Origin: a virus
Taxonomy: Duplodnaviria > Caudoviricetes
DNA length: 64,000 bases
Virus record (IMG/VR): IMGVR_UViG_3300032312_001422
Coordinates: 128,001 to 192,000 of that record
Strand: one strand, 5' to 3'
Part shown: positions 11,173 to 29,850 of the stretch, one piece after another
How the letters are laid out: the number at the start of each line of letters is the position of its first letter
Position numbering within the stretch: the first letter of the stretch is position 1
Made by a program: the position numbers and the translations under genes
Notes under the pieces: generated by a model
What the model was told of the DNA's origin: nothing
The model's input: the letters and a program-made list of their open reading frames with translations, nothing else
Database searches by the model: none

Positions 11173-11907
11173 ATGTTTGATCACTTAAAAGATATTGTAC
11201 AACACACTTATGGCTTGGGCGTTATTAGCATGATTAAGGTCACAGGCGATGCTAACGGCACAGCCATTAATGCTTTTGACCAAGCTACCAAAACAGTGGT
11301 GCTGAATGCAGAATTCAAAGCACCCGTTGCCGAATTCCAAGGCGTGTTTGGTATGCCAAACTTGGATAGACTTAATACTATCCTTAACATTCCTGAATAC
11401 AAGGAAGGCGCAAAAATCACAGTAGCAAGTCAGAAAGATGCAGAAGGCACAGATGTTCCTTCCAGCATCAATTTTGAAAACAAGGGTGGCGACTTTAAAA
11501 ACTCATATCGCTTTATGAGCACAGCAGTCATTAACGATCAATTGAAGAACGTTAAGATGAAACCAGTCAAGTGGGGTGTGGAAATAGCACCCACAGCACT
11601 GAGCATCCAGAAACTAAAGTTTCAAGCAATGGCACACTCAGATGCTACAACATTTTCAAGCAAAACAGAAAATGGCGAACTAAAGTTTTTCTTTGGTGAA
11701 GCCAGCAGTCACGCAGGGTCATTTACGTTTGCTACAACCTCAGGTTCATTGAGCAAACAGTTGAACTGGCCAGTGGCTGTAGTTAACAGTATTTTGAGCT
11801 TGCCCGGAGACAAGACATTCAAGATCTCAGATGATGGTGTTGCTGAAATTACTGTAGACTCTGGTCTAGCTGTTTATCACTACATGTTGCCAGCACAAAC
11901 CAAGTAA
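11173..11907 (+). CDS. probable sliding clamp (gp45-like processivity factor)
   Basis: 244 aa with beta-rich pattern, near the DNA polymerase; no diagnostic motif, so inferred from size and context. Confidence 0.55.
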   Translation: MFDHLKDIVQHTYGLGVISMIKVTGDANGTAINAFDQATKTVVLNAEFKAPVAEFQGVFGMPNLDRLNTILNIPEYKEGAKITVASQKDAEGTDVPSSINFENKGGDFKNSYRFMSTAVINDQLKNVKMKPVKWGVEIAPTALSIQKLKFQAMAHSDATTFSSKTENGELKFFFGEASSHAGSFTFATTSGSLSKQLNWPVAVVNSILSLPGDKTFKISDDGVAEITVDSGLAVYHYMLPAQTK

Positions 11908-12557
11908 TGAAAGAAGCAGTTAGACACGGATACTTAGCAGGCGGTGGATTGCGTAGCCCAGATAAAAAACACTTTTATTTGAACATTCCCAAAAACGCCA
12001 GCACGTACCTGTCTAACACACTACTGGCCAATGGATGGCATTATCATACCTTGGGTGATGACAGTGACAAAATTACTCATGCCATGGTTGTGTTAAAAGA
12101 TCCAGTAGATCGTTGGGTCAGCGGAGTTGGTACATATATTAGCAGTTGGATATTAGGGCCAGGTTACGGCAGTGATCACTTTGTTGAAAATTATAATAAT
12201 TTATCCGAACGGCTGTTGTTTGAAACCTTGATACTGGATGACCATACTACACCACAGATTGCATATATCAACCAACTTGAACAACTATTACCAGGCGTAC
12301 CTGTTACATATTTTAAATTAGATCAATTTGTTGTTGACAATATGAGTGTTTGTATATCACAGTTATTGGACGTGCCCGCAGTTGAGTCAAACATTTCTGA
12401 GGATCATTATGATCAGCAAGTCGTAGTTAATTTTATAAAAAAACGAATACTAGCCGACTTTACATTAAAGGCCAAGGTAGTTGCTAGATTTCAAGAGGAC
12501 TACGATTTTATTAACCAAACACAATTTTACTATGAGCCAAGACAACTTAACCGCTAA
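11907..12557 (+). CDS. sulfotransferase family protein
   Basis: 5'-PSB-like NIPKNASTY and 3'-PB-like KDPVDRWVSG. Confidence 0.72.
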   Translation: MKEAVRHGYLAGGGLRSPDKKHFYLNIPKNASTYLSNTLLANGWHYHTLGDDSDKITHAMVVLKDPVDRWVSGVGTYISSWILGPGYGSDHFVENYNNLSERLLFETLILDDHTTPQIAYINQLEQLLPGVPVTYFKLDQFVVDNMSVCISQLLDVPAVESNISEDHYDQQVVVNFIKKRILADFTLKAKVVARFQEDYDFINQTQFYYEPRQLNR

Positions 12558-14097
12558 ACAATCAGACTATGCTGTGTTCCTTCCGGCCATCTCGGGCTTC
12601 TATGCCACATTCATAGGTAAGCAACGTGATCCGGTAGCAGGTCCTTATGTAGACCCGGCTAGATTCCCACAGGGCATAACAGATATGGAACAACTCAACT
12701 GGTTGAATGACCAGAAGGGCATGTTCCCATACAAGTGGTCGCTTTACTCCGGTGGCCACGCAAACCTTGATCTCGCCAAGCAGGACTGGAGCGAGGACAT
12801 GGTTCGCAATCGCGACCCAAACACACTAGTACTAGGTGACTCTGGTGGATTCCAGATTGCCAAAGGACTATGGGAAGGCGATTGGAAGGCCAATTCAGGA
12901 TGTCCCAAAGCACAGAAAAAACGAGAACAGGTTTTGGCGTGGCTTGACGGCATTGCTGACTACGGTATGACCCTTGATATTCCAACCTGGGTTGCACTAG
13001 ATAAAGAAGCAGGTAAGAAATGTGGTATTAGTACGCACCAGGAAGCTGTTGATGCTACCAAATATAACAATGATTACTTTATGGACAATCGTAAAGGTAT
13101 CAAGAACGGTGGCGTTAAGATTTTAAATGTATTACAAGGCGCCAACCACATTGAGGCTGACGATTGGTACGAAACCATGAAACACTATTGTGATCCTGTG
13201 CAACATCCAGACACACACTTTAACGGATGGGCCATGGGTGGACAAAACATGTGTGACGTGGAATTGATTCTCAGACGTTTAGTTACTCTACGTTATGACA
13301 ACTTGTTACAAGAAGGTGTTCACGATTGGATGCATTTCTTGGGCACAAGCAAACTAGAGTGGGCAGTACTGTTAACTGTGATACAACGAAACGTTAGAAA
13401 GTATGTAAATCCTAGTTTCACTATCAGCTTTGATTGTGCTAGTCCATTCCTTGCTACAGCCAACGGACAGGTATACTTTGAAAATGTGTTTCCCGACAAC
13501 GGCAAGTGGTCATACAGGATGGCTCCTAGTGCAGATGACAAAAAGTACGCAACAGACACACGCAAGTGGAGTGACGGAGTGGTAGCGGATGGCAAGTATC
13601 CACGTTGGGAAGACAGTCCACTTAGTAACTTGTTTAAAATGAAAGACATTTGCTACTACAAACCAGGCGATGTAAACAAGAATGGCAAAGAAGGCAAAAC
13701 GTCATGGGATAGTTTTAGTTACGCATTGTTAATGGGTCATAATGTATGGATGCATTTGACAGCGGTACAAGAAGCCAATCGTAGATTTGATGCCGGTGCT
13801 CATCCTGCCATGATGCGTAGCTCAGGCCCGGGTGGTGAATATTTTGAAGACATCGTAGAAGCAATCTTTGCTGCCCCAGATAAAGCAACATCGATGGAGA
13901 TCATTGATATGTATAAAGGAGATACCGGGTATTGGTGTGAAATTGTTGGTACTAGAGGATTCAAAGGCAAGAAAGCTGTTAACGGTAGTGCCAATTTTAG
14001 TAAATTGTTTTATTTTGAAGATGATGTAGAAATTGTAGAAGAAACAACAGAACAAGAATTTGATCAAACTAAACTAGACGCACTGGAGGCAGAATGA
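12532..14097 (+). CDS. TGT-fold guanine transglycosylase, DpdA-like
   Basis: GDSGGFQI, MTLDIP, NVLQG, GWAMGG, MHFLG, SFDCASP match the TGT barrel; no CxCxxC zinc site. Confidence 0.85.
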   Translation: MSQDNLTAKQSDYAVFLPAISGFYATFIGKQRDPVAGPYVDPARFPQGITDMEQLNWLNDQKGMFPYKWSLYSGGHANLDLAKQDWSEDMVRNRDPNTLVLGDSGGFQIAKGLWEGDWKANSGCPKAQKKREQVLAWLDGIADYGMTLDIPTWVALDKEAGKKCGISTHQEAVDATKYNNDYFMDNRKGIKNGGVKILNVLQGANHIEADDWYETMKHYCDPVQHPDTHFNGWAMGGQNMCDVELILRRLVTLRYDNLLQEGVHDWMHFLGTSKLEWAVLLTVIQRNVRKYVNPSFTISFDCASPFLATANGQVYFENVFPDNGKWSYRMAPSADDKKYATDTRKWSDGVVADGKYPRWEDSPLSNLFKMKDICYYKPGDVNKNGKEGKTSWDSFSYALLMGHNVWMHLTAVQEANRRFDAGAHPAMMRSSGPGGEYFEDIVEAIFAAPDKATSMEIIDMYKGDTGYWCEIVGTRGFKGKKAVNGSANFSKLFYFEDDVEIVEETTEQEFDQTKLDALEAE

Positions 14098-14609
14098 ACA
14101 GAGCAGGACACGAACAAGTAAATTTCTTTGTTGGCCGGGAAGTAGAGCATAGCCCGGCATTTGGACATAAAACTTTATTTGTAGTTGGTATTCAGTCTAC
14201 TGATGTTATTCTAAACACGGCCAAGAATAACAACTGCTCACACGTTTATTTTGGCGCAAACCAAAGTTTTCCTAATCCCAAAACCAACGATGGCGACACA
14301 TGGCGTGAATGGGAAGGTATGATTACCGGATGTTTACAACGAGGGATATTGTGTACCTTGGATTTGGACGTATCCAGTGTAGAAGGACTAGTTGAAGGTT
14401 GTTTAATTGAGTACAACAACTTTATCCCGATGATTTCGGTGAAATTGCCCTCTTTACAACTATTAGGATATAATGCTACAATAAAGCTCGACGACAAAGA
14501 CTTTGCGGCATCCAACCCCGGAGTATGGTGTCATCAGTTACATGATTTAAAGGACCGTAAAGTATTTACGGATTGGTCGAAGTACACACAAGACGAAGTT
14601 ATAAAATGA
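14094..14609 (+). CDS. hypothetical protein coupled to the TGT-like gene
   Basis: ATGA overlaps at both ends. Confidence 0.8.
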   Translation: MNRAGHEQVNFFVGREVEHSPAFGHKTLFVVGIQSTDVILNTAKNNNCSHVYFGANQSFPNPKTNDGDTWREWEGMITGCLQRGILCTLDLDVSSVEGLVEGCLIEYNNFIPMISVKLPSLQLLGYNATIKLDDKDFAASNPGVWCHQLHDLKDRKVFTDWSKYTQDEVIK

Positions 14610-15070
14610 ACCAAGAACAAAGAGAAGTAGTTGAAAGAATTAAAACAGCCGCACATCGCCAGATCTGGGTCACCTTCCAAAAGGAAGGAATTCATTGCTA
14701 TCCGGCTGCAGGCACGGATCCGGCACTAGCAACAGGAGATGAATACGATGTATCGTTTCTTGCTAATCCTCATCGCCATATTTTCCATTTCAGGGTGTCA
14801 ATTGATGTCTTCCACAACGACAGAGATATTGAGTTCATCCAGTTCAAACGCTGGCTCGAGAATCTTTACAGTGGGACCGGTCCCTTTAATCAAGATCGAG
14901 TATTAGAATTAAACTATAAGAGTTGCGAAATGATCGCCGACGACTTGTATGTACAAATTGCTGCACGTTATCCAAATCGTGCTGTCTCAATTGAAGTGTC
15001 CGAGGACGGTGAAAACGGATGCTTAATCAATTATAACCTTACCCGTCCAAGTCAATCAATTGTAATCTAA
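14606..15070 (+). CDS. QueD-like T-fold protein (DpdL-type signature)
   Basis: LANPHRHIF = LxxxHRHxF; SCEMIA; VSEDGENG C-terminus typical of the PTPS fold. Confidence 0.75.
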   Translation: MNQEQREVVERIKTAAHRQIWVTFQKEGIHCYPAAGTDPALATGDEYDVSFLANPHRHIFHFRVSIDVFHNDRDIEFIQFKRWLENLYSGTGPFNQDRVLELNYKSCEMIADDLYVQIAARYPNRAVSIEVSEDGENGCLINYNLTRPSQSIVI

Positions 15071-21318: not shown

Positions 21319-22392
21319 TTTGTCAAGCATGGTTCTTGAAACCTTACCGGCGGCATTCTTAGGTACTTCGTCAACTTCTTTGAGCACAGTTGGATAACAG
21401 TATTGCCCCATAGACACTAATACTGTTTTAATTTGCGTTTTATTGTACGGGCCACTGTATACACATTTTACAGAGTCTGTGCCAAATACTGCCAGGTCTT
21501 TAAGATCAGGAAACACAGCATATAGTTTGTTTTCTAGGCTTAAAGGATCTAATTTGTAGCCGCGAACATTAATACGATCTACACTACGTCCTAGAATTCG
21601 AAAATAGCCTGCTTCATCTTGTTCGGCCAAATCTCCGGTGTCGAGCCAATCCGAATTAGCCACACTAGGACCTCGTATCAGTAGTTTACTTTGTTCAATA
21701 CGTGCTTCTACTCCATCAGGTAAACCCACTGTACCTATGCGTTGTTCTCCATCCAGCGGATTGGTCAAACAGTGACTACATGATTCTGTCATGCCAAAAC
21801 TTTCAACAATAGGCACACCAAACTGTTCTTTCATAGCAGAATACAGTTGCGGAGGTAAAGCAGAGCTAGCACTACGAACAAATCGTAAACTATCAAACCT
21901 TTGTTTCATCAGGGCTTTTAATATATCTGGAATACCAGTAATAAATGTAGGACTGTATTTGGATACTTCTTGTAATCGTCCAATGGGCAAAAATGTTGTT
22001 TCCATACCAATCATGCGACTCATCCAATACATCATTTGGCCGTGTGCATGCCATAGGCTCATTACACCAACATAACGATCATTGGCAGTAAGATTATAGG
22101 ATTTGATTATTTGACCACATACATAATTGACTTGCTGTTCGGTAAAACTGTAAAATTTACTATCGCCAGTTGTGCCTGAAGTATACCAGTAGACTTTTTC
22201 TCCAGGGTACTCAGCACCATCCCGCTCTTGTATGTTGTCGGCCGTGACCAATAGGCTCCAATCCGAATTGTTTAACAGGTATTGGTTTCGGTCAGCCGGC
22301 GCTGCAGGATTCAATACCATAATGCTATAATTTTTATCATATAGTGGTATGTAGTCCCAGGGGTTGGGTACACAAATGACAGCTCTTTTCAT
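21307..22392 (-). CDS. ANL-superfamily AMP-dependent acyl-CoA synthetase/ligase
   Basis: YTSGTTG, ESFGMTE, TGDL, GR..DRINVRG. Confidence 0.9.
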   Translation of the reverse strand: MKRAVICVPNPWDYIPLYDKNYSIMVLNPAAPADRNQYLLNNSDWSLLVTADNIQERDGAEYPGEKVYWYTSGTTGDSKFYSFTEQQVNYVCGQIIKSYNLTANDRYVGVMSLWHAHGQMMYWMSRMIGMETTFLPIGRLQEVSKYSPTFITGIPDILKALMKQRFDSLRFVRSASSALPPQLYSAMKEQFGVPIVESFGMTESCSHCLTNPLDGEQRIGTVGLPDGVEARIEQSKLLIRGPSVANSDWLDTGDLAEQDEAGYFRILGRSVDRINVRGYKLDPLSLENKLYAVFPDLKDLAVFGTDSVKCVYSGPYNKTQIKTVLVSMGQYCYPTVLKEVDEVPKNAAGKVSRTMLDKLFA

Positions 22393-22414
22393 TGGATTTT
22401 ATTAGTTGATATGG

Positions 22415-22422
22415 TATTTATA
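22415..22422 (-). promoter_or_regulatory. T4-late-type promoter TATAAATA
   Basis: Exact TATAAATA on the minus strand about 22 nt upstream of ATG 22392. Confidence 0.55.
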
Positions 22423-22448
22423 TTTCGATAAAAAATTATCAACACGTA

Positions 22449-22477
22449 TTGACTTGTAGATCTAAATACTGTATAAT
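22449..22477 (+). promoter_or_regulatory. sigma70-type promoter with nested CTAAATA
   Basis: TTGACT-17-TATAAT. Confidence 0.72.
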
Positions 22478-22489
22478 GTTAACATCAAA

Positions 22490-23410
22490 ATGAATAAACC
22501 TACACTTATAAATCTTAAAAATTTACCATACGGTGGTGCACAGTATGTACCCAGCAACGAACGAGAACAATTTGTTCGTCATAGTATCAAAGTATCAGCA
22601 GACAGCTTATGGTTACCACAGTTACAAGATGAATTTCTTGTTGCATATCGTCAATGGATTGGTGCTACCAAACTAAACACCATCGCAGGCCTAGACAAAT
22701 TTCCCGTATCAGCAGTTGCTCAAGGAACCACCGAAGCATTTGATAAATTTTATCTTAAAAATTCTGCTCGTCGTTTGAGATATTTCAAAGGTGAGTACAT
22801 GTATCATCAAGTGGCTGGAAGACAATACTTTGGAAGCGCCAGTACATTTATCGAAGATGAAGCACTGGACATTAATGATGCAGTGGTTGTCAGTTTGCCA
22901 TTCAGTGATACCGGCAATGAACATCCAAAAATGAAGGCCATGCTTGCGGAATGTACAAGATTGGGTATTCCAGTGTTGATGGATTGTGCATATTTTGGTA
23001 TTTGCAGTGGCATTGATTTTGATGTTGATCACGATTGTATCACAGACATAACCTTTAGTCTGAGCAAGACATTTCCAGTTCCCCATTTGCGTATTGGCAT
23101 GCGATTGACACGTGTCGATGATGATGACGCACTACTGGTCACAAACAAAACACAATATGTCAATCGGTTGAGCGTGGCAGTTGGGCTAGAACTCATACAA
23201 ATGTGGGACTGTGATACTATTCCCAATTTGTATTTGGAGACTCAAAAAGAATTTTGCAAAGCATTAGAAGTCGAACCAAGTAATTGTGTTATTTTTGGCA
23301 TAGACACTACTGAAAAATGGAAACAATACAATCGTGGTGGAGCAACCAATCGTTTATGTTTTGCCAAATACCTGCACGAAAAACAATTACCCATTGACTT
23401 CACAGTCTAA
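22490..23410 (+). CDS. fold-type I PLP-dependent enzyme (aminotransferase-like)
   Basis: LMDCAYF (PLP Asp) and FSLSKTF (PLP Lys). Confidence 0.68.
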   Translation: MNKPTLINLKNLPYGGAQYVPSNEREQFVRHSIKVSADSLWLPQLQDEFLVAYRQWIGATKLNTIAGLDKFPVSAVAQGTTEAFDKFYLKNSARRLRYFKGEYMYHQVAGRQYFGSASTFIEDEALDINDAVVVSLPFSDTGNEHPKMKAMLAECTRLGIPVLMDCAYFGICSGIDFDVDHDCITDITFSLSKTFPVPHLRIGMRLTRVDDDDALLVTNKTQYVNRLSVAVGLELIQMWDCDTIPNLYLETQKEFCKALEVEPSNCVIFGIDTTEKWKQYNRGGATNRLCFAKYLHEKQLPIDFTV

Positions 23411-23422
23411 ATATTATACAAT
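23394..23422 (+). promoter_or_regulatory. folE promoter, sigma70-type with nested CTAAATA
   Basis: TTGACT-17-TACAAT. Confidence 0.68.
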
Positions 23423-23459
23423 AATACAAAGTCATCCACGACACTAACTCGGAGAATAA

Positions 23460-24302
23460 ATGTCCAAAAATAAAGATAAAAACAAAGATAAAAATAAAAA
23501 TAAAGATCTACTATTTGATGCAATCAAAGCTACACAATACGTAAATGAAGCACCGTATCATCCCGGATACGAAGATGCTGTAATGCACATGAGCGATAAA
23601 GGTTACGAAGAAGGCAAGTATCTAGCCGATGCTATCCGATTTAATATGAAGCGTGATAAAAAACGTTTCTGGGCTGGTGACAACATCAGTGAATACTTGC
23701 ATGAAGGTGATAAAGAACGACTAATCGATGAAGCTACAGAAGCTTTTGAACGAGTGTTAGATACCTTGCTGATTGATCGTGAGAATGATCCTAACTCAAA
23801 AGGTACAGCACGTCGTTTGGCCAAGATGTATTTTAACGAAATTATGGAGGGCAGATATGCTCCAGCGCCAGATGCAACAGCTTTTCCAAATGATTCAGCG
23901 GATAGATACGAAGGTATGCTTGTGGTTCGTAGCGAACTGCGTTCTATGTGCAGTCACCATCATCAGCCTGTGTCTGGTGTTGCTTACATCGGAATCATTG
24001 CCGCAAATAAACTTATTGGCTTGTCTAAATATACTAGGATCGCTCAGTGGTGTGCTCGTCGTGGCACACTTCAAGAAGAACTATGTAACGACATCGCAAG
24101 AGAAATAATGCGGGCCACTGAATCAGAAAACGTGGGTGTGTATATCCAAGCGGTACACGGGTGCTGTGAGAATCGTGGCATTATGGCACACTCTAGTCTA
24201 ACGCAGACTACTGTGTTGCGTGGTAGTTTTCAAACAGACCCAGGAACCAAAAAAGAGTTCATGGACAATATTAAACTACAACAGGACTTTGCTCCTCGTT
24301 AA
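23460..24302 (+). CDS. folE: GTP cyclohydrolase I
   Basis: SMCSHHHQP, IGLSK, LQEE, HGCCENRG. Confidence 0.95.
   Translation: MSKNKDKNKDKNKNKDLLFDAIKATQYVNEAPYHPGYEDAVMHMSDKGYEEGKYLADAIRFNMKRDKKRFWAGDNISEYLHEGDKERLIDEATEAFERVLDTLLIDRENDPNSKGTARRLAKMYFNEIMEGRYAPAPDATAFPNDSADRYEGMLVVRSELRSMCSHHHQPVSGVAYIGIIAANKLIGLSKYTRIAQWCARRGTLQEELCNDIAREIMRATESENVGVYIQAVHGCCENRGIMAHSSLTQTTVLRGSFQTDPGTKKEFMDNIKLQQDFAPR
23466..23507 (+). repeat. short AAAAAYAAAGAT-type tandem repeat encoding KNKDKNKDKNKNKD
   Basis: Read directly at the folE 5' end. Confidence 0.7.
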
Positions 24303-24316
24303 GGAACATAACTACA

Positions 24317-24979
24317 ATGTTAGAAACCATATGTGAAGTATTAGAAGATGCGTACAAACGCAATTGGATTACCAGCCGTGATGGCAATGTGAGTATTCGT
24401 CATCACGACCGCGATCATTTCTACATCACTCCTAGTGGTGTGCGTAAACAGACACTACAACCTGATCAGTTTAAGAAAATTATAATTAAACCTCCAATGA
24501 CTTGGAACGAACCAGGCACAGGTTTATTAGCAGAACGTTGGGGGTGGAAAGAAGACACCTACACCGATATTAGTTCTAAACTACGACCCAGTGGAGAGAT
24601 TCCTTTGCATTTTGGTCTACAGAAACAGATGGGACAACACTTGGGAGAAGTCCGAGTAGTGGTACATGTGCATCCTACCTACTGCATTGCGGCCATGCAT
24701 GCCGGCATTGATTTGAGTACTGTGAGTGCGGCATTTCCAGAACTCAATCGATATACTCGGGTAGCACCCAATGTACCGGATGTTCCGCCAATCAGTCAAG
24801 AGCTTGCAGATAAATGTTTTGAAAAGCTAGGCCTAGATGATCAAGGTAACATTGCCTATGACATTGTGGGCATCAAAGGGCATGGAGTAGTTGCTATTGA
24901 TACAAGTCCGTGGCGTGCCTATGAGCACATAGAGCGATTAGAACACATTTGCAAGATTGTATTGGCCTCTAAAACATGA
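24317..24979 (+). CDS. class II aldolase/adducin family protein
   Basis: DGNVS, ITPSG, VVHVHPTY, KGHGVV. Confidence 0.88.
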   Translation: MLETICEVLEDAYKRNWITSRDGNVSIRHHDRDHFYITPSGVRKQTLQPDQFKKIIIKPPMTWNEPGTGLLAERWGWKEDTYTDISSKLRPSGEIPLHFGLQKQMGQHLGEVRVVVHVHPTYCIAAMHAGIDLSTVSAAFPELNRYTRVAPNVPDVPPISQELADKCFEKLGLDDQGNIAYDIVGIKGHGVVAIDTSPWRAYEHIERLEHICKIVLASKT

Positions 24980-25305
24980 TACCTAAAAGTTGGCGCATAG
25001 GATTTTTTAACTGGCTTGGTGCAGGCAAAATAACATTAACAGTAGATAAACCACAGGAATACTCAATGGGAAATACATACACAATAGGCGGTGGTGGAGC
25101 AGGGTTGGGCGGCCTTCAGCTTAATCCATCAACTCCACAAAGTAGTCAAACAATGACTGTCAAGATTACTCCAGCCAACGGTGGCACTATTGTTCAAATG
25201 CTAACTAGCGAATATAGCAACGGAGAGTTATATATTATTCCAGACGGAATAGACTTTGATAGGGAACTAGGTAAAATTATCACTATGAGCAAATTAAAAT
25301 CATGA
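24976..25305 (+). CDS. hypothetical protein
   Basis: ORF track; true start may be internal (MGNTYT). Confidence 0.6.
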   Translation: MIPKSWRIGFFNWLGAGKITLTVDKPQEYSMGNTYTIGGGGAGLGGLQLNPSTPQSSQTMTVKITPANGGTIVQMLTSEYSNGELYIIPDGIDFDRELGKIITMSKLKS

Positions 25306-25529
25306 TTACACAAAGCCTACAGGCTGTTATAACAGAAGTATCCGACCTATGGTCTTGGATGATTGGCATTGTTGCTGGTTGGGGTCTAACATTTACTCTT
25401 GTGGTCGCTGTACTGATATATGCACACATCAGAATTTCTAGATTGCAACGTAAGGTAACACAGCTTGAAAATCGTCATGTAACAGATGAGCGGGACCTTA
25501 GCTTACGTATAAGGAAGTTTGAAAAATGA
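25302..25529 (+). CDS. small membrane protein
   Basis: One TM helix; ATGA coupling. Confidence 0.65.
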   Translation: MITQSLQAVITEVSDLWSWMIGIVAGWGLTFTLVVAVLIYAHIRISRLQRKVTQLENRHVTDERDLSLRIRKFEK

Positions 25530-25615
25530 AATTAGGTGAACTAATCTCTATGGTTATTTTTGGAATTATCTTGGTTGCATTTATTTTTTATCAATATGGA
25601 CATCATGTAAAATGA
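25526..25615 (+). CDS. 29-aa hydrophobic microprotein
   Basis: MKLGELISMVIFGIILVAFIFYQYGHHVK; ATGA-coupled at both ends. Confidence 0.55.
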   Translation: MKLGELISMVIFGIILVAFIFYQYGHHVK

Positions 25616-26166
25616 GTAAAGTATATTACAAAGAATCAACAATTCGATCTTGGGTACACGATATTATCCGTGCTGTGAACGCAGATAATTGGCGCCCCGA
25701 TTATATTGTAGGTCTAACTCGCGGTGGACTAGTTCCTGCTGTGATGCTGAGTCATTACTTGGATGTACCAATGCATGCTCTTAAAGTAAGCCTACGTGAC
25801 GGCGATCATGGACCAGAAAGCAATGCATGGATGGCCGAAGATGCATTCGGTTGGATTGAAGGCGGGTATCGAGGGTTGGGTGGTGACGGTGCGTTTGATT
25901 TTACTATGCATGCTAAAAACATTCTTATAGTAGATGATATCAATGATACCGGCGCTACACTAAACTGGATTCGCAAAGATTGGCAAAGCAGTTGCTTACC
26001 CGATAACTCACGTTGGGAAAATGTATTTGGTAATAACGTTCGCTTTGCTGTATTAATCAATAACGAAGCCAGCGAGTTCACGGACGTGGACTATGTGGGC
26101 ATGTCAATAAACAAACTGGAAGAACCCATCTGGTGTGTTTTTCCTTGGGAAGAATGGTGGAGATAA
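25612..26166 (+). CDS. type I purine phosphoribosyltransferase (Gpt-like)
   Basis: GLTRGG; PRPP motif ILIVDDINDTGATL; FPWE. Confidence 0.88.
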   Translation: MSKVYYKESTIRSWVHDIIRAVNADNWRPDYIVGLTRGGLVPAVMLSHYLDVPMHALKVSLRDGDHGPESNAWMAEDAFGWIEGGYRGLGGDGAFDFTMHAKNILIVDDINDTGATLNWIRKDWQSSCLPDNSRWENVFGNNVRFAVLINNEASEFTDVDYVGMSINKLEEPIWCVFPWEEWWR

Positions 26167-26254
26167 ATAGTTATATCCCCAAAACAGCGGTCTTGGCGTC
26201 ATTCCCGCTTGATAAATTCTGCCGCCTATGCTATAATTAACATAGGAGAAATCA
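26162..26254 (+). promoter_or_regulatory. queD leader: late-type GATAAATA, pseudoknot-like RNA, SD-sequestering hairpin and overlapping sigma70 promoter
   Basis: AGCGG/CCGCT stem; loop GGCG complementary to CGCC; CCTATG/CATAGG; TTGATA-17-TATAAT at 26209-26237. Confidence 0.6.
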
Positions 26255-26704
26255 ATGGCAAAGTATTACTCAACAAAACATTACGGACACAACATTGGAT
26301 TGAGTGCTGTATTTAGACAGCCCAATGCCGATCATAGTCACTGTCACTTGCTACATGGCTACAGTCTAGCGTTTACATTCACATTTGGTTGTGATCAGCT
26401 AGACAACAAAAACTGGGCAGTGGACTTTGGCAGTCTCAAAGAACTAAAAGCCTGGCTAGAAGATCACTTTGATCACAAATTGGCTCTGGATCAACAAGAT
26501 CCGCACTTGTCCAAGTTCGAAGAATTACAAGCATTGGATCTGGTAGAGATCAGAATATTTGATGGTGTGGGTGCAGAGAAGTTTGCCGAGCATGCTTTCA
26601 ATTTTGCCGATCGATTGATTAGAGAAAAGACCGATGGTCGTTGCTATTGTGTCAGAGCAGAATGTGCCGAACACGGAGCCAATAGTGCAATCTACGAAGG
26701 TTAA
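26255..26704 (+). CDS. queD: 6-carboxytetrahydropterin synthase
   Basis: HCHLLHGY; VDFGSLK; FDHKL; AEKFA; EHGANSAIY. Confidence 0.9.
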   Translation: MAKYYSTKHYGHNIGLSAVFRQPNADHSHCHLLHGYSLAFTFTFGCDQLDNKNWAVDFGSLKELKAWLEDHFDHKLALDQQDPHLSKFEELQALDLVEIRIFDGVGAEKFAEHAFNFADRLIREKTDGRCYCVRAECAEHGANSAIYEG

Positions 26705-26960
26705 CGAAATCTTGGACATATTGCAAGAGGAGTGCGGTGAAGTTATTGTTGCTATCAGCAAAATTCGCCGTTTTGGTATTGACAATACGTACAAGGATGG
26801 TGGTACCCAGCGTGAACACCTGGTACAAGAACTAGGCGATGTTACATTGCTAGTAGAATTACTCAAGGCACACAATATTTTTACAGAAGCAGAATTACAT
26901 GAAGCACAAGTGAGAAAAAGTCAAAAATTAACACAATGGTCGAAAATATATGAAGATTAA
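26685..26960 (+). CDS. MazG-like nucleotide pyrophosphohydrolase
   Basis: GTG start after GGAG; LQEECGEV...ELGDV all-alpha NTP-PPase motif. Confidence 0.78.
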   Translation: MQSTKVNEILDILQEECGEVIVAISKIRRFGIDNTYKDGGTQREHLVQELGDVTLLVELLKAHNIFTEAELHEAQVRKSQKLTQWSKIYED

Positions 26961-27810
26961 AGTCAGTGAAATATTTTATAGTTTACAAGGCGAAGGTCGC
27001 TTTGTTGGAGTACCCAGTGTATTCCTTAGAACCTATGGCTGTAACTTTACCTGTTCAGGTTTTGGATGCAAGCCTGGAGAAAAGTCAACAGGTGCCGATG
27101 AGGTTGCTAAAAAGGTTGAACTGTACAAGACATTTACGGACTTGCCCTTGGTAGAAACAGGATGCGACAGCTATGCGTCATGGCACCCTGCTTACAAGCA
27201 TCTAAGTCCAACACTGACCACAGAAGAACTTGTGGAAAAGATGTTGACCTTGACTCCCAACAACCAGTGGGCCCAGAACAATGGCAATGATGTACACTTG
27301 GTTATCACAGGCGGTGAACCTTTGCTAGGTTGGCAACGTGCCTATGCAGAACTGCTGAGTCATCCCAGAATGGCAGACTTAAAAAATATCACATTTGAAA
27401 CCAATGGCACACAAGAACTACACGAAGACTTTAGAGATTATTTGATCGATTGGGCCAGTGACAAAGCTGGTCGTGAAGTTACATTCAGTGTCAGTGCCAA
27501 ACTGAGTGCAAGCGGCGAGACTTGGGAAGATGCTATCAAACCCAAGATTGTCAATATCTATCAAACTTACGGACATACCTATCTTAAATTTGTGGTAGAA
27601 ACAGAAGACCATGTAACTGAAGCAGTCCGTGCTGTGGACGCCTTTAGACATGATGGCTTCAAAGGAGTTGTATACTTGATGCCACAGGGCGGTGTAGTTG
27701 ATCCATACGAATCAAATAAACTAAACATTGCCAACATCTGTTGCAAACTGGGATTCAACTATAGCCCACGCTTGCATGTGGATCTCTGGGGCAACGGCTG
27801 GGGCAAATAA
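26950..27810 (+). CDS. queE: 7-carboxy-7-deazaguanine synthase (radical SAM)
   Basis: EIFYSLQGEG...FLRTYGCNFTC; TGGEPL; FETNG; YLMPQ; PRLH. Confidence 0.93.
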   Translation: MKIKVSEIFYSLQGEGRFVGVPSVFLRTYGCNFTCSGFGCKPGEKSTGADEVAKKVELYKTFTDLPLVETGCDSYASWHPAYKHLSPTLTTEELVEKMLTLTPNNQWAQNNGNDVHLVITGGEPLLGWQRAYAELLSHPRMADLKNITFETNGTQELHEDFRDYLIDWASDKAGREVTFSVSAKLSASGETWEDAIKPKIVNIYQTYGHTYLKFVVETEDHVTEAVRAVDAFRHDGFKGVVYLMPQGGVVDPYESNKLNIANICCKLGFNYSPRLHVDLWGNGWGK

Positions 27811-27811
27811 T

Positions 27812-28036
27812 ATGGCTCCCATACCGGGCATGGACCGATATGATCAGTTTCATGCACGAGCCGACTGGGATTACGTATTTGTCTGGTGGCCGAAACAATG
27901 TGAACTCACTAACCGTCAAATCTGGTTGCAACATGCATATCGTGGCACAGCAGTCTGGGTCGGCCCCGGTGAACCTGTGTTTGAATACAGATATCATGCT
28001 CCCCAGGAACACTTAATTTGGCAACTACAACAGTGA
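27812..28036 (+). CDS. hypothetical protein
   Basis: ATG immediately after the queE stop. Confidence 0.6.
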   Translation: MAPIPGMDRYDQFHARADWDYVFVWWPKQCELTNRQIWLQHAYRGTAVWVGPGEPVFEYRYHAPQEHLIWQLQQ

Positions 28037-28518
28037 CTGAAAAAAAATCCAATGTCACCGACGGACGAGAGAGTTTTGACGTCACAGTTGGCAATACCTT
28101 GGTTGCGTTTTTTAATCGCAACGTAAGCACGTATCCCACTGAAGCGGGTGGACCCAAGTTTGATCTTATTCCCGTTGAAAAGCAAAAAGACATCATGGTC
28201 AATGTGGCCCGTATGTATGCTCAACAGGAATACGACCGTATTACAGAATTGGTAACAGTATTACAAAAACAAGCAGCAGAACTCAAGCGTCGATTAGATA
28301 TTACCGACATGGTACATGCCGCCAAGTACGAGTTCCAAGTGTATCACGGCCAAACCTATTGGTTGGCTTACGAACACAACAAACAAGGCACTAGATTGAC
28401 CCACTTGGGCCCAAATGATTGGACCACAGGTGCGCCTGCAGATTATGAATATATTTGCCAGGTCAAGTGGTTGGGTGATTACACCTGGGTAGAAGTAACA
28501 GAACAGGATGCAAAATGA
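28018..28518 (+). CDS. hypothetical protein
   Basis: ORF track; start uncertain (GTG at 28033 is possible). Confidence 0.7.
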   Translation: MATTTVTEKKSNVTDGRESFDVTVGNTLVAFFNRNVSTYPTEAGGPKFDLIPVEKQKDIMVNVARMYAQQEYDRITELVTVLQKQAAELKRRLDITDMVHAAKYEFQVYHGQTYWLAYEHNKQGTRLTHLGPNDWTTGAPADYEYICQVKWLGDYTWVEVTEQDAK

Positions 28519-29477
28519 ATAAAATGATGATTTGGCCCGTGTGGGCAGTGGCAGTATTGACCACTTGGTTATACCTGATCTTGACCGGACCAGGTTTTGC
28601 CTTGTATGACACACACTGGCTGTATGCGGTTATGATGATATTTGGTTCAGCCATAGCCGGCTTCACTCCCGAGGGTGGCGGTGCTGTGGCATTTCCCATT
28701 CTGAGCCTGTACTTTAATATCACCCCGCCTGCGGCTAGAGACTTTAGTCTAGCCATACAAAGCATTGGCATGGTATCAGCGGCCATATGGATCTTGACAC
28801 GCAAAGGGCATGACCTACGAACATTTAGACACGTACCGTTCTATGCGGCTGTGAACATGATTGGTTTTGTGCTTATGACCACTGTGGCCGGTGCTGTTGC
28901 TTTCAAAACCGTACAGATGTTGTTTGTGAGTCTGGCCTTGGCCTTTATTGTGGCCTACTTGATCAGCCGTGGTCGTGGCACCGTGGATGATGTCGAACTC
29001 AAAGGTTCCCAATTTGTTACTTTTACAATATTTTCATTCATAGGTGGTTGTGCCTCTGCCATGTTCGGCACAGGCAGTGACATGTTGATTTACATTGCGT
29101 TGACCTGCTACTACGGCATGAAGGAAAAGATCAGCACAGACATCAGCATTGTGCTCATGGCTGTGATCACTGTGTTTGGCATTGCCTATCGTGGTTTGTT
29201 TTTGGATGCTGTACACCCGGACGTTTATTTGATGTGGTTGGCAGCTGCCCCGGTGGTGTTGTTTTTTGCTCCATTTGGTAACATACTGTTGGGATGGGTC
29301 CGTAAAGAAACCATGTTGTACACAGTACTGGCCATGAATGCTGTAAACTATTTTTACTTTATGAGTAAAAATCTAAATATGCTGACACCAACTGTGATAA
29401 CACTGGCATCATTTGTAATATTTTTTGTAGCAAGTTTTTACATTAAGAACATAAGGAATAAAAATGGGAATATTTGA
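28515..29477 (+). CDS. TauE/SafE-like sulfite exporter family membrane protein
   Basis: Repeated GxGGG-like loops (GFTPEGGGAV; FGTGSD); about 8-9 TM helices. Confidence 0.72.
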   Translation: MNKMMIWPVWAVAVLTTWLYLILTGPGFALYDTHWLYAVMMIFGSAIAGFTPEGGGAVAFPILSLYFNITPPAARDFSLAIQSIGMVSAAIWILTRKGHDLRTFRHVPFYAAVNMIGFVLMTTVAGAVAFKTVQMLFVSLALAFIVAYLISRGRGTVDDVELKGSQFVTFTIFSFIGGCASAMFGTGSDMLIYIALTCYYGMKEKISTDISIVLMAVITVFGIAYRGLFLDAVHPDVYLMWLAAAPVVLFFAPFGNILLGWVRKETMLYTVLAMNAVNYFYFMSKNLNMLTPTVITLASFVIFFVASFYIKNIRNKNGNI

Positions 29478-29850
29478 TCGCTTTAAAAAGAAACCCGAAA
29501 CAAAACCAGAAGCACCCAAGACTCGAAAAAAATCTGCCAAGGACTTGGCCACAGAAAAGGGTGAACCTTATGTGGCAATTCTTAGTGTGGACCTAGATCC
29601 CGACAACATTGGCAACGGTGCATTTGAGCTAGACTGGAATGACAAGTTTATTGCCAATCTGGTACGTGCTGGTTATCAACACAAGCCCGCAGACACAGAT
29701 GCAGACATGGTAGACCGTTGGTTTGCTGATGTATGTAAAAATGTAGTGGCAGAAAACTTTGAACAATGGGAAGCCAATCAACCCTTTGATGCACGTCCAC
29801 GCAATATTGAACGCAGAGATATCGGCGACGGTCGCACTGAAGTATCGTGA
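29464..29850 (+). CDS. hypothetical protein
   Basis: AAGGA SD; 128 aa. Confidence 0.75.
   Translation: MGIFDRFKKKPETKPEAPKTRKKSAKDLATEKGEPYVAILSVDLDPDNIGNGAFELDWNDKFIANLVRAGYQHKPADTDADMVDRWFADVCKNVVAENFEQWEANQPFDARPRNIERRDIGDGRTEVS

Follow-up and report, generated by a model that had tools for sequence, protein, structure and literature searches.

The stretch of DNA described here (hereafter, the window) comprises bases 128001–192000, that is, 64,000 nucleotides, of a linear 288,815-bp virus record (IMG/VR IMGVR_UViG_3300032312_001422) from a giant, uncultured phage, with an estimated completeness of about 80%. The subject of this study is a gene in it for a type I phosphoribosyltransferase (PRT), which stands among the genes of a predicted deazaguanine DNA-modification system. 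For phages of the phiST type, in which every guanine is replaced, the authors of the phiST study suggested missing components (PMC10516641); the PRT is a concrete candidate for such a component that has been overlooked. An original prediction, made from this DNA alone, had read the gene order PRT–queD–MazG–queE with overlaps among the last three genes. The four open reading frames (ORFs) were confirmed on the plus strand at the positions given in Table 1, and the same order is repeated in 25 related viral contigs; it is therefore not a product of chance. The gene for FolE is positioned 1.3 kb 5′ of the PRT gene. A gene for a protein with the fold of tRNA-guanine transglycosylases (TGTs) and the DpdL gene lie 11–13 kb 5′ of the PRT locus, adjoining the gene for a family B DNA polymerase (PolB). 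The whole deazaguanine block sits among replication genes (PolB, a 5′–3′ exonuclease and thymidylate synthase). The phage also encodes a ribonucleotide reductase, and no guanylate kinase is encoded in the record.

Table 1 Features of the PRT locus and of the deazaguanine block around it (positions in the window)
Feature	Position	Strand	Remarks
PRT, type I purine phosphoribosyltransferase, XGPRT/HGPRT-like	25612–26166	+	184 aa; PF00156, E 4.4e-12; phrog_8995
Sigma-70-like promoter site ahead of queD	26209–26237	+	TTGATA-17-TATAAT, consensus match only
QueD, 6-carboxytetrahydropterin synthase, phiST type	26255–26704	+	PF01242, E 1e-13; phrog_2389, E 2e-38
Small MazG-type NTP pyrophosphohydrolase	26685–26960 (longest ORF from 26634)	+	PF03819, 25.1 bits; phrog_4856, E 7e-20
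QueE	26950–27810	+	phrog_2076, E 6.7e-53; five NCBIfam QueE models match N-terminally, all below cut-off
FolE, GTP cyclohydrolase I, first pathway enzyme, GTP consumer	23460–24302	+	PF01227, E 5.5e-39
TGT-fold protein, candidate DpdA-type DNA transglycosylase	12481–14097	+	AlphaFold2 (AF2) model and Foldseek; DSGGFQ
DpdL, QueD paralogue, proposed decarboxylase of 7-carboxy-7-deazaguanine (CDG)	14573–15070	+	tblastn with phiST gp040, E 8e-13; LANPHRHIF

The PRT gene is free of overlap, being separated from queD by an 88-bp gap. This gap carries the best sigma-70-like site of positions 23300–28200 (11 of 12 consensus positions, plus an extended TG); the number of such sites in the region is not above that in shuffled sequence. 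Because the promoter-like site and the gap separate it from queD, the PRT gene is probably part of the folE unit that precedes it. No riboswitch was found by an E-value scan with Rfam of positions 22000–29000, including the PRT–queD spacer (26164–26254). When the locus was compared with cultured phages by blastn, the sole match was a 305-nt stretch of folE of phage Phosso, and the phage therefore has no close cultured relatives.

FolE, QueD and QueE are present without QueC (PF06508), for which there was no match in the 288.8-kb record, itself about 80% complete. This is the gene set of the DpdL-type system that yields 7-deaza-2′-deoxyguanosine (dDG) in DNA. QueD is 45% identical to the QueD of phiST (E 1e-36) and carries the motif CHLLHGY; the form CxxxHGY was seen in QueD of this phage, of phiST (window 26255–26704; L004, 11087–11716) and of all relatives checked, the published QueD signature being CxxxHGH. 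The motif of DpdL fits the published signature LxxxHRHxF. The 538-aa TGT-fold protein had no match by Pfam, PHROGs or PDB sequence profile, the TGT family PF01702 had no match in the whole record, and no sequence similarity to DpdA3 of phiST was detectable. Its AF2 model (pLDDT 82.8, pTM 0.84), however, had only TGTs among its top 50 Foldseek matches in the PDB (E ~1e-8), and DSGGFQ is found at residues 120–125. The protein is thus a candidate DNA transglycosylase on the strength of its modeled fold. BLASTP of phiST DpdA3 with another ORF of the window (11173–11907) showed no similarity. Alignment of the TGT-like profile by hhalign with single ORFs of Synechococcus phage BUCT-ZZ01 and Brevundimonas phage MaInes gave probabilities below 2%, the method being too insensitive here; only a DSGG-Q stretch is common, in a 416-aa protein of BUCT-ZZ01. 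From its genes, the system is predicted to be a QueC-less, DpdL-type deazaguanine DNA modification like that of phiST.

For the relationship between the PRT and this system, we examined 80 viral contigs, kin to one another, whose PRTs are 45–91% identical to that of the window. The PRT lies inside the same deazaguanine block in all of them. The block runs in the order PolB, a phrog_12062 gene, the TGT-like gene, a 171-aa ORF, DpdL, often a 407-aa ORF (GT), FolE and the PRT, followed sometimes by QueD and MazG, then by QueE, a 128-aa ORF and the 5′–3′ exonuclease. QueE was seen in 72 and FolE in 63 of the 80 relatives, and in all 63 contigs with both FolE and the PRT the two are 0.3–4.8 kb apart, in either order. 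The TGT-fold gene and DpdL are kept by every phage of the clade whose contig is long enough. The protein family of the PRT has at least 7,946 metagenome members.

Some neighbors of the PRT in this block deserve a remark of their own. The 171-aa ORF between the TGT-like gene and DpdL (window 14094–14609) was seen in 36 loci, and the 128-aa ORF 3′ of QueE (window 29464–29850), which has a weak PHROG match to "virion structural protein", was seen in 67 loci; both are conserved, constant companions of the block without an assigned function. In near relatives whose PRT is 70–85% identical to that of the window, QueD is only about 40% identical to the window QueD, and this difference suggests that queD has been replaced within the clade. 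Between folE and the PRT gene stands a gene of the class II aldolase/adducin type (24317–24979). It was considered as a member of the pathway and rejected, as it is found in only one of the 80 relatives; it is probably a recent insertion.

Independent lineages weigh more than 80 kin contigs, and we therefore turn to a collection of 50,697 records of cultured phages. By tblastn, the PRT family was found in only 8 of these records, which form three lineages: the phiST group (Cellulophaga phages phiST, phi13:1 and phi19:2), Synechococcus phage BUCT-ZZ01, and the Brevundimonas phages MaInes and StAshley. QueE is annotated in the phiST group, BUCT-ZZ01 and MaInes, and the DNA of phiST, phi13:1 and phi19:2 has been shown to contain dDG, the dG of phiST being wholly (100%) replaced (PMC10516641). 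A Pfam scan of whole records added the PA5oct group, in which a divergent PRT (EST35_0321, phrog_8995) stands immediately before queE. QueE of this type occurs in 201 records, that is, about 0.4% of the collection, and it is far from chance that all three tblastn lineages are deazaguanine phages. The tie between the PRT and the deazaguanine genes, which the original prediction had drawn from a single locus, thus recurs in independent phages. The gene order in BUCT-ZZ01 is QueE–PRT–ORF–QueD–FolE. In MaInes, whose system includes QueC, QueD and QueE, the PRT gene comes immediately after that for FolE; what the PRT is partnered with is therefore the step that consumes GTP and not any single deaza base. 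A dNMP kinase gene is also found directly 5′ of the FolE–PRT pair in MaInes. In phiST, a T4 gp1-like dNMP kinase gene (phrog_139; L001, 9431–10039) lies directly 3′ of the PRT gene, and a P-loop "ATPase" (gp041, with its own PHROG; L004, 14049–14546) is encoded between DpdL and DpdA3. In the library searched, only a genome-mining preprint about gene clusters of actinobacteria links DpdA or YhhQ to such a PRT, and a PRT is mentioned in neither of the two key papers, of which one is that on dDG in phiST (PMC10516641). The system is thus of a known kind, and the PRT is an accessory of it that has not been described before; we found its link to deazaguanine in no paper.

These distributions bear on a generic explanation of the PRT, namely that it performs ordinary purine salvage, raising GTP and dGTP from host bases, and that its position in the block reflects early expression shared with the replication genes. 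The location of the block among PolB, the 5′–3′ exonuclease and thymidylate synthase would suit this explanation. So would the location of the phiST PRT, gp064, which has RNase H, the dNMP kinase and ribonucleotide reductase as neighbors and is 19 kb away from the CDG genes, and the lack of a PF00156 gene in 8 of the 10 DpdL-phage lineages tested (ACP17, Phosso, MA9V-3, RHph_I1_18, Bakedbeans, X1, BCSR5 and Ahp1). However, because only about 0.4% of the records have the QueE type, a gene for generic salvage would be expected in other phages as well, whereas among the 50,697 records the family is confined to lineages with deazaguanine genes (the three found by tblastn and PA5oct). The linkage with FolE, moreover, persists through changes of gene order. 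We regard generic salvage as improbable.

The sequence of the PRT was then examined for its possible substrate. The protein scores 46 bits against the PF00156 cut-off of 26.3 and is the sole PF00156 gene product of the record. A profile of the family matched purine PRTs in the PDB: 1VDM (3e-14), 4Z1O (1.8e-12), 2JKY, the hypoxanthine-guanine PRT (HGPRT) of yeast (9e-9), and 1A95, the xanthine-guanine PRT (XGPRT) of E. coli (2e-3). Nevertheless, the PRT is below every NCBIfam equivalog cut-off, the best being XPRT with 32 bits versus 138. The motif for phosphoribosyl pyrophosphate (PRPP) is ILIVDDINDTGAT, and in an alignment of 17 diverse phage members, D108, D109, D112, G114 and T116 are invariant. 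The stretch DDINDTG is thus kept, with D112 as the Asp before TG; among the aligned homologues from phages and cells, only L100, L149, L151 and L153 lack this Asp. The W174/FPWE element is conserved in the family, and a long extra loop with an invariant ESNxWMAEDA marks the main phage clade. In HGPRT, the Asp before TG (D137) is the acid/base that acts on N7 of the purine, and it is not found in adenine, orotate and uracil PRTs. The 7-deazapurines have no N7. Since the phage PRT keeps the N7-acting Asp, guanine, hypoxanthine or xanthine would be its expected substrate.

Based on the linkage and the motif, we estimate at about 50% the probability that the PRT is a guanine (6-oxopurine) PRT that serves a post-replicative deazaguanine system, acting as a sink that recycles released guanine to GTP for FolE. 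We infer the flux of guanine and every catalytic step in this phage as follows. FolE, QueD and QueE would convert GTP to CDG, and DpdL would convert CDG to 7-deazaguanine by decarboxylation. After replication, the TGT-fold enzyme would exchange guanine in DNA for 7-deazaguanine; this post-replicative route would be available because a TGT-fold transglycosylase and DpdL are both encoded. One guanine would be freed per exchange, which amounts to about 120,000 per genome copy (arithmetic from a G+C content of about 42%). The PRT would join the freed guanine with PRPP to give GMP, and host kinases, the record encoding no guanylate kinase, would raise GMP to GTP, the substrate of FolE. In this way, the competitor of the exchange would be removed and the precursor refunded. 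The guanine sink would explain the linkage with FolE, the presence of the PRT in both DpdL- and QueC-type systems, and the retention of the N7-acting Asp. In the original prediction, the recycling of guanine released by the transglycosylase had been placed second, as an alternative; it is the reading that the evidence favors.

Cellular homologues of the PRT provide another view of its function. In a scan of 185,579 species genomes, homologues with 31–37% identity were found in marine Bacteroidota and Sphingomonadaceae; several phage contigs binned into metagenome-assembled genomes were found as well. In all 18 loci of the marine Bacteroidota type (within L105–L142, e.g., L116, 6989–8057), a PF02592 gene lies directly downstream of the PRT gene and on its strand. 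At the one locus where it was scored, the product of this gene reached 112 bits against a cut-off of 51 bits with the NCBIfam model TIGR00697, "queuosine precursor transporter" (YhhQ family). YhhQ is an importer of preQ0 and preQ1 (Zallot et al. 2017, PMC5372724). A transporter of this type, 46–48% identical to that of the Bacteroidota, also lies inside the deazaguanine block of two phage contigs (L053, 5869–7007; L063, 14890–15417), in L053 directly after the PRT gene. The five Bacteroidota genomes tested all have the tRNA enzyme Tgt, and only one has QueC; none has a canonical Hpt above the cut-off, and in the two genomes checked, the better-scoring PRT-like genes were PyrR. A scan of ten Bacteroidota PRT–YhhQ loci at the gathering threshold gave tRNAs only, so there is no riboswitch evidence to tell guanine from preQ1. 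In a maximum-likelihood tree, the phage-block PRTs L106 and L108 nest in the Bacteroidota clade (support 98/86), the main phage clade with the ESNxWMAEDA loop is separate, and the sequences from cultured phages form long branches whose placement the tree does not resolve. The cellular homologues look like ordinary salvage enzymes, and the PRT–YhhQ pair may be an operon of importer and PRT that salvages guanine-like bases in genomes without another HGPRT. A PurR-bound site is present at yhhQ of E. coli, which hints at a purine connection. We found no paper describing the PRT–YhhQ pair.

Several observations weigh against the guanine sink. One is that the PRT is missing from most of the DpdL-phage lineages listed above; its function would therefore have to be dispensable where the host can supply it. 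Another is that the substrate is read from a motif, and by analogy, the PRT subfamily appears to have changed its specificity before: TubE of tubercidin biosynthesis joins CDG to PRPP and rejects 7-deazaguanine (Liu et al. 2018, PMC6112128), and in that paper TubE was aligned with 4Z1O, which ranks second among the structural relatives of the phage PRT. In addition, expression of phiST DpdL and DpdA3 in E. coli yielded no dDG, other enzymes being perhaps required according to the authors (PMC10516641), so the accepted exchange route itself is unproven. The last is that the pairing with YhhQ may equally mean that the PRT acts on imported 7-deazaguanines.

All but the first of these observations also speak for an alternative in which the deazaguanine reaches DNA by a pre-replicative route. 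The PRT would here be the phage counterpart of TubE, coupling CDG or 7-deazaguanine to PRPP; the nucleotide would be reduced and raised to 7-deaza-dGTP by the phage ribonucleotide reductase and host kinases, and the polymerase would incorporate it. DpdL may then act on the nucleotide, MazG would lower dGTP, the family B polymerase would write the base, and the TGT-fold enzyme would only clear residual G or have another role. The Bacteroidota PRT–YhhQ pair would correspondingly make nucleotides from imported 7-deazaguanines. Besides the alignment with 4Z1O, TubE offers the precedent of a PRT specific for CDG: it works in a FolE/QueD/QueE pathway that lacks QueC, and decarboxylation at the nucleotide level then gives a GMP analogue. 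The phiST group combines a PRT of the same family with 100% replacement of dG, and DpdL and DpdA3 alone did not suffice in E. coli. The phiST cluster has a MazG (phrog_229) and a dNMP kinase gene stands beside the phiST PRT gene; the window phage encodes a ribonucleotide reductase; the cellular homologues are paired with an importer of 7-deazaguanine precursors; and a cyanophage MazG favors dGTP and dCTP. On the other side, the N7-acting Asp does not vary among the 17 phage members and is missing from only a few of the aligned homologues, and the product of the PRT would be a ribonucleotide, so that 7-deaza-GTP would also reach RNA and GTP-dependent processes. To our knowledge, every pre-replicative base replacement in phages acts on deoxynucleotides. 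Moreover, the TGT-fold gene and DpdL are retained throughout the clade where the contigs are long enough, the substrate of the PRT would have to differ between systems because the gene accompanies QueC in MaInes, and the record is without a guanylate kinase. We consider this alternative possible and, on balance, doubtful. Incorporation by the polymerase, which the original prediction had put forward, received no positive indication. Of its proposal that the PRT acts on a deazaguanine, what holds is that a CDG-specific PRT exists in TubE; the retained Asp speaks against the application to this phage.

The small MazG, assumed in that prediction to drain dGTP, requires separate consideration. Its PF03819 score exceeds the cut-off of 22, and its acidic motifs, QEECxEV and ELGDV, are conserved across 17 members. 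No other gene of the record encodes a MazG domain, and the MazG profile had no sequence match in the PDB. The MazGs of the relatives are mostly 89–103 aa long with conservation starting at residue 17–24, and the GTG at 26685 has GGAG 6 nt upstream. Because of the shorter relatives and this GGAG, translation probably starts at 26685, which gives a protein of 91 aa and overlaps of 20 nt (not 71) with queD and of 11 nt with queE. These overlaps show co-expression, not shared function. MazG is found in 26 of the 80 relatives and is absent from 54, a further point against the pre-replicative route, as is the wide distribution of its family: it occurs in 131 cultured phage records, mostly of phages of Enterobacter, Klebsiella, Citrobacter and Rhodobacter, none of which forms a main group among the 201 records that bear QueE. 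In BUCT-ZZ01, about 50 kb separate the homologue from the deazaguanine genes, and the window MazG has no similarity to the phiST MazG or to a 118-aa ORF of BUCT-ZZ01. A MazG in the phiST cluster was noted by the authors (PMC10516641); it belongs to phrog_229 and the window MazG to phrog_4856, which are different families. The MazG of cyanophage S-PM2 prefers dGTP and dCTP, and by analogy only, the window MazG might lower dGTP; a dedicated role finds weak genomic support. The protein is better regarded as a probable general phage nucleotide pyrophosphatase that was inserted between queD and queE in one sub-lineage, co-expressed with them and not a fixed part of the deazaguanine route. In marine relatives, the variable slot held here by MazG is occupied by another nucleotide-handling gene, which encodes a HIT-domain protein (histidine triad nucleotide hydrolase) and lies between the PRT gene and folE (L054, 10551–10928).

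The PRT travels with deazaguanine genes in phiST, PA5oct, BUCT-ZZ01 and the Brevundimonas phages as well as among thousands of metagenome proteins. If it is a guanine sink, it would explain how a reversible base exchange is driven to completion and would show how fully substituted DNA could be reconstituted. A deazapurine PRT, in turn, would overturn the claim that these modifications are all introduced after replication. The cultured phages phiST, PA5oct, BUCT-ZZ01 and MaInes make the question directly testable, and the PRT–YhhQ operon of the marine Bacteroidota offers a second, cellular handle on it.

Finally, the locus can be compared with known systems. The phage PRT has the PP-loop RGG, the motif hhhhDDxxDTGxT including its final Asp, and the C-terminal W...FPWE in common with 6-oxopurine PRTs (1VDM of P. 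horikoshii, 4Z1O or GpT-2 of S. solfataricus, E. coli XGPRT 1A95/1NUL and yeast HGPRT 2JKY; profile E-values of 3e-14 to 2e-3), and it differs from them in reaching no equivalog cut-off and in the extra ESNxWMAEDA loop of the main phage clade. In B. subtilis, xpt-pbuX is a salvage operon of a base importer and a PRT; the same pairing is common to the Bacteroidota loci and phage contig L053, whereas the window has no YhhQ gene.

In Z-genome phages, PurZ acts together with DatZ or MazZ: the new base is built on a deoxynucleotide, and dedicated hydrolases remove dATP and dGTP (PMC8342488). The likeness is that of a base-replacing phage with a MazG-type NTP pyrophosphatase. In contrast to those phages, no deoxynucleotide-level synthase is seen here, the PRT would give ribonucleotides, and MazG, whose family is widespread in phages outside the QueE-bearing records, is restricted to a minority of the related loci; the locus thus departs from pre-replicative systems of the Z-genome or hydroxymethylcytosine type. 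PRTs of the TubE/ToyH type use CDG or preQ0 and are encoded together with tailoring enzymes, namely a UbiD decarboxylase, a GMP-reductase homologue and a Nudix or HAD enzyme (PMC6112128). They have in common with the phage PRT that a purine-type PRT accompanies FolE, QueD and QueE without QueC, the likeness to TubE being drawn through the alignment with 4Z1O. ToyH is listed in that paper as ACF06639.1. However, the TubE partners serve to make a secreted nucleoside, and this phage has the candidate transglycosylase instead; no such tailoring enzymes were seen among the block genes scanned.

With phiST (Cui, Hutinet et al., NAR 2023, PMC10516641), the differences are that the phiST PRT gene lies 19 kb outside the cluster whereas that of this phage lies inside it, that DpdA3 and the 538-aa TGT-fold protein have no sequence similarity, that the two MazGs are of different families, and that the DNA of phiST was analyzed for dDG whereas this phage is known from its genes. 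The two share FolE, QueD, QueE and DpdL, with the motifs CxxxHGY in QueD and LxxxHRHxF in DpdL; each encodes a distant TGT-like protein, and each cluster holds a MazG-type gene; both are without QueC, both clusters lie beside the replicative polymerase, and both phages have a PRT of phrog_8995.

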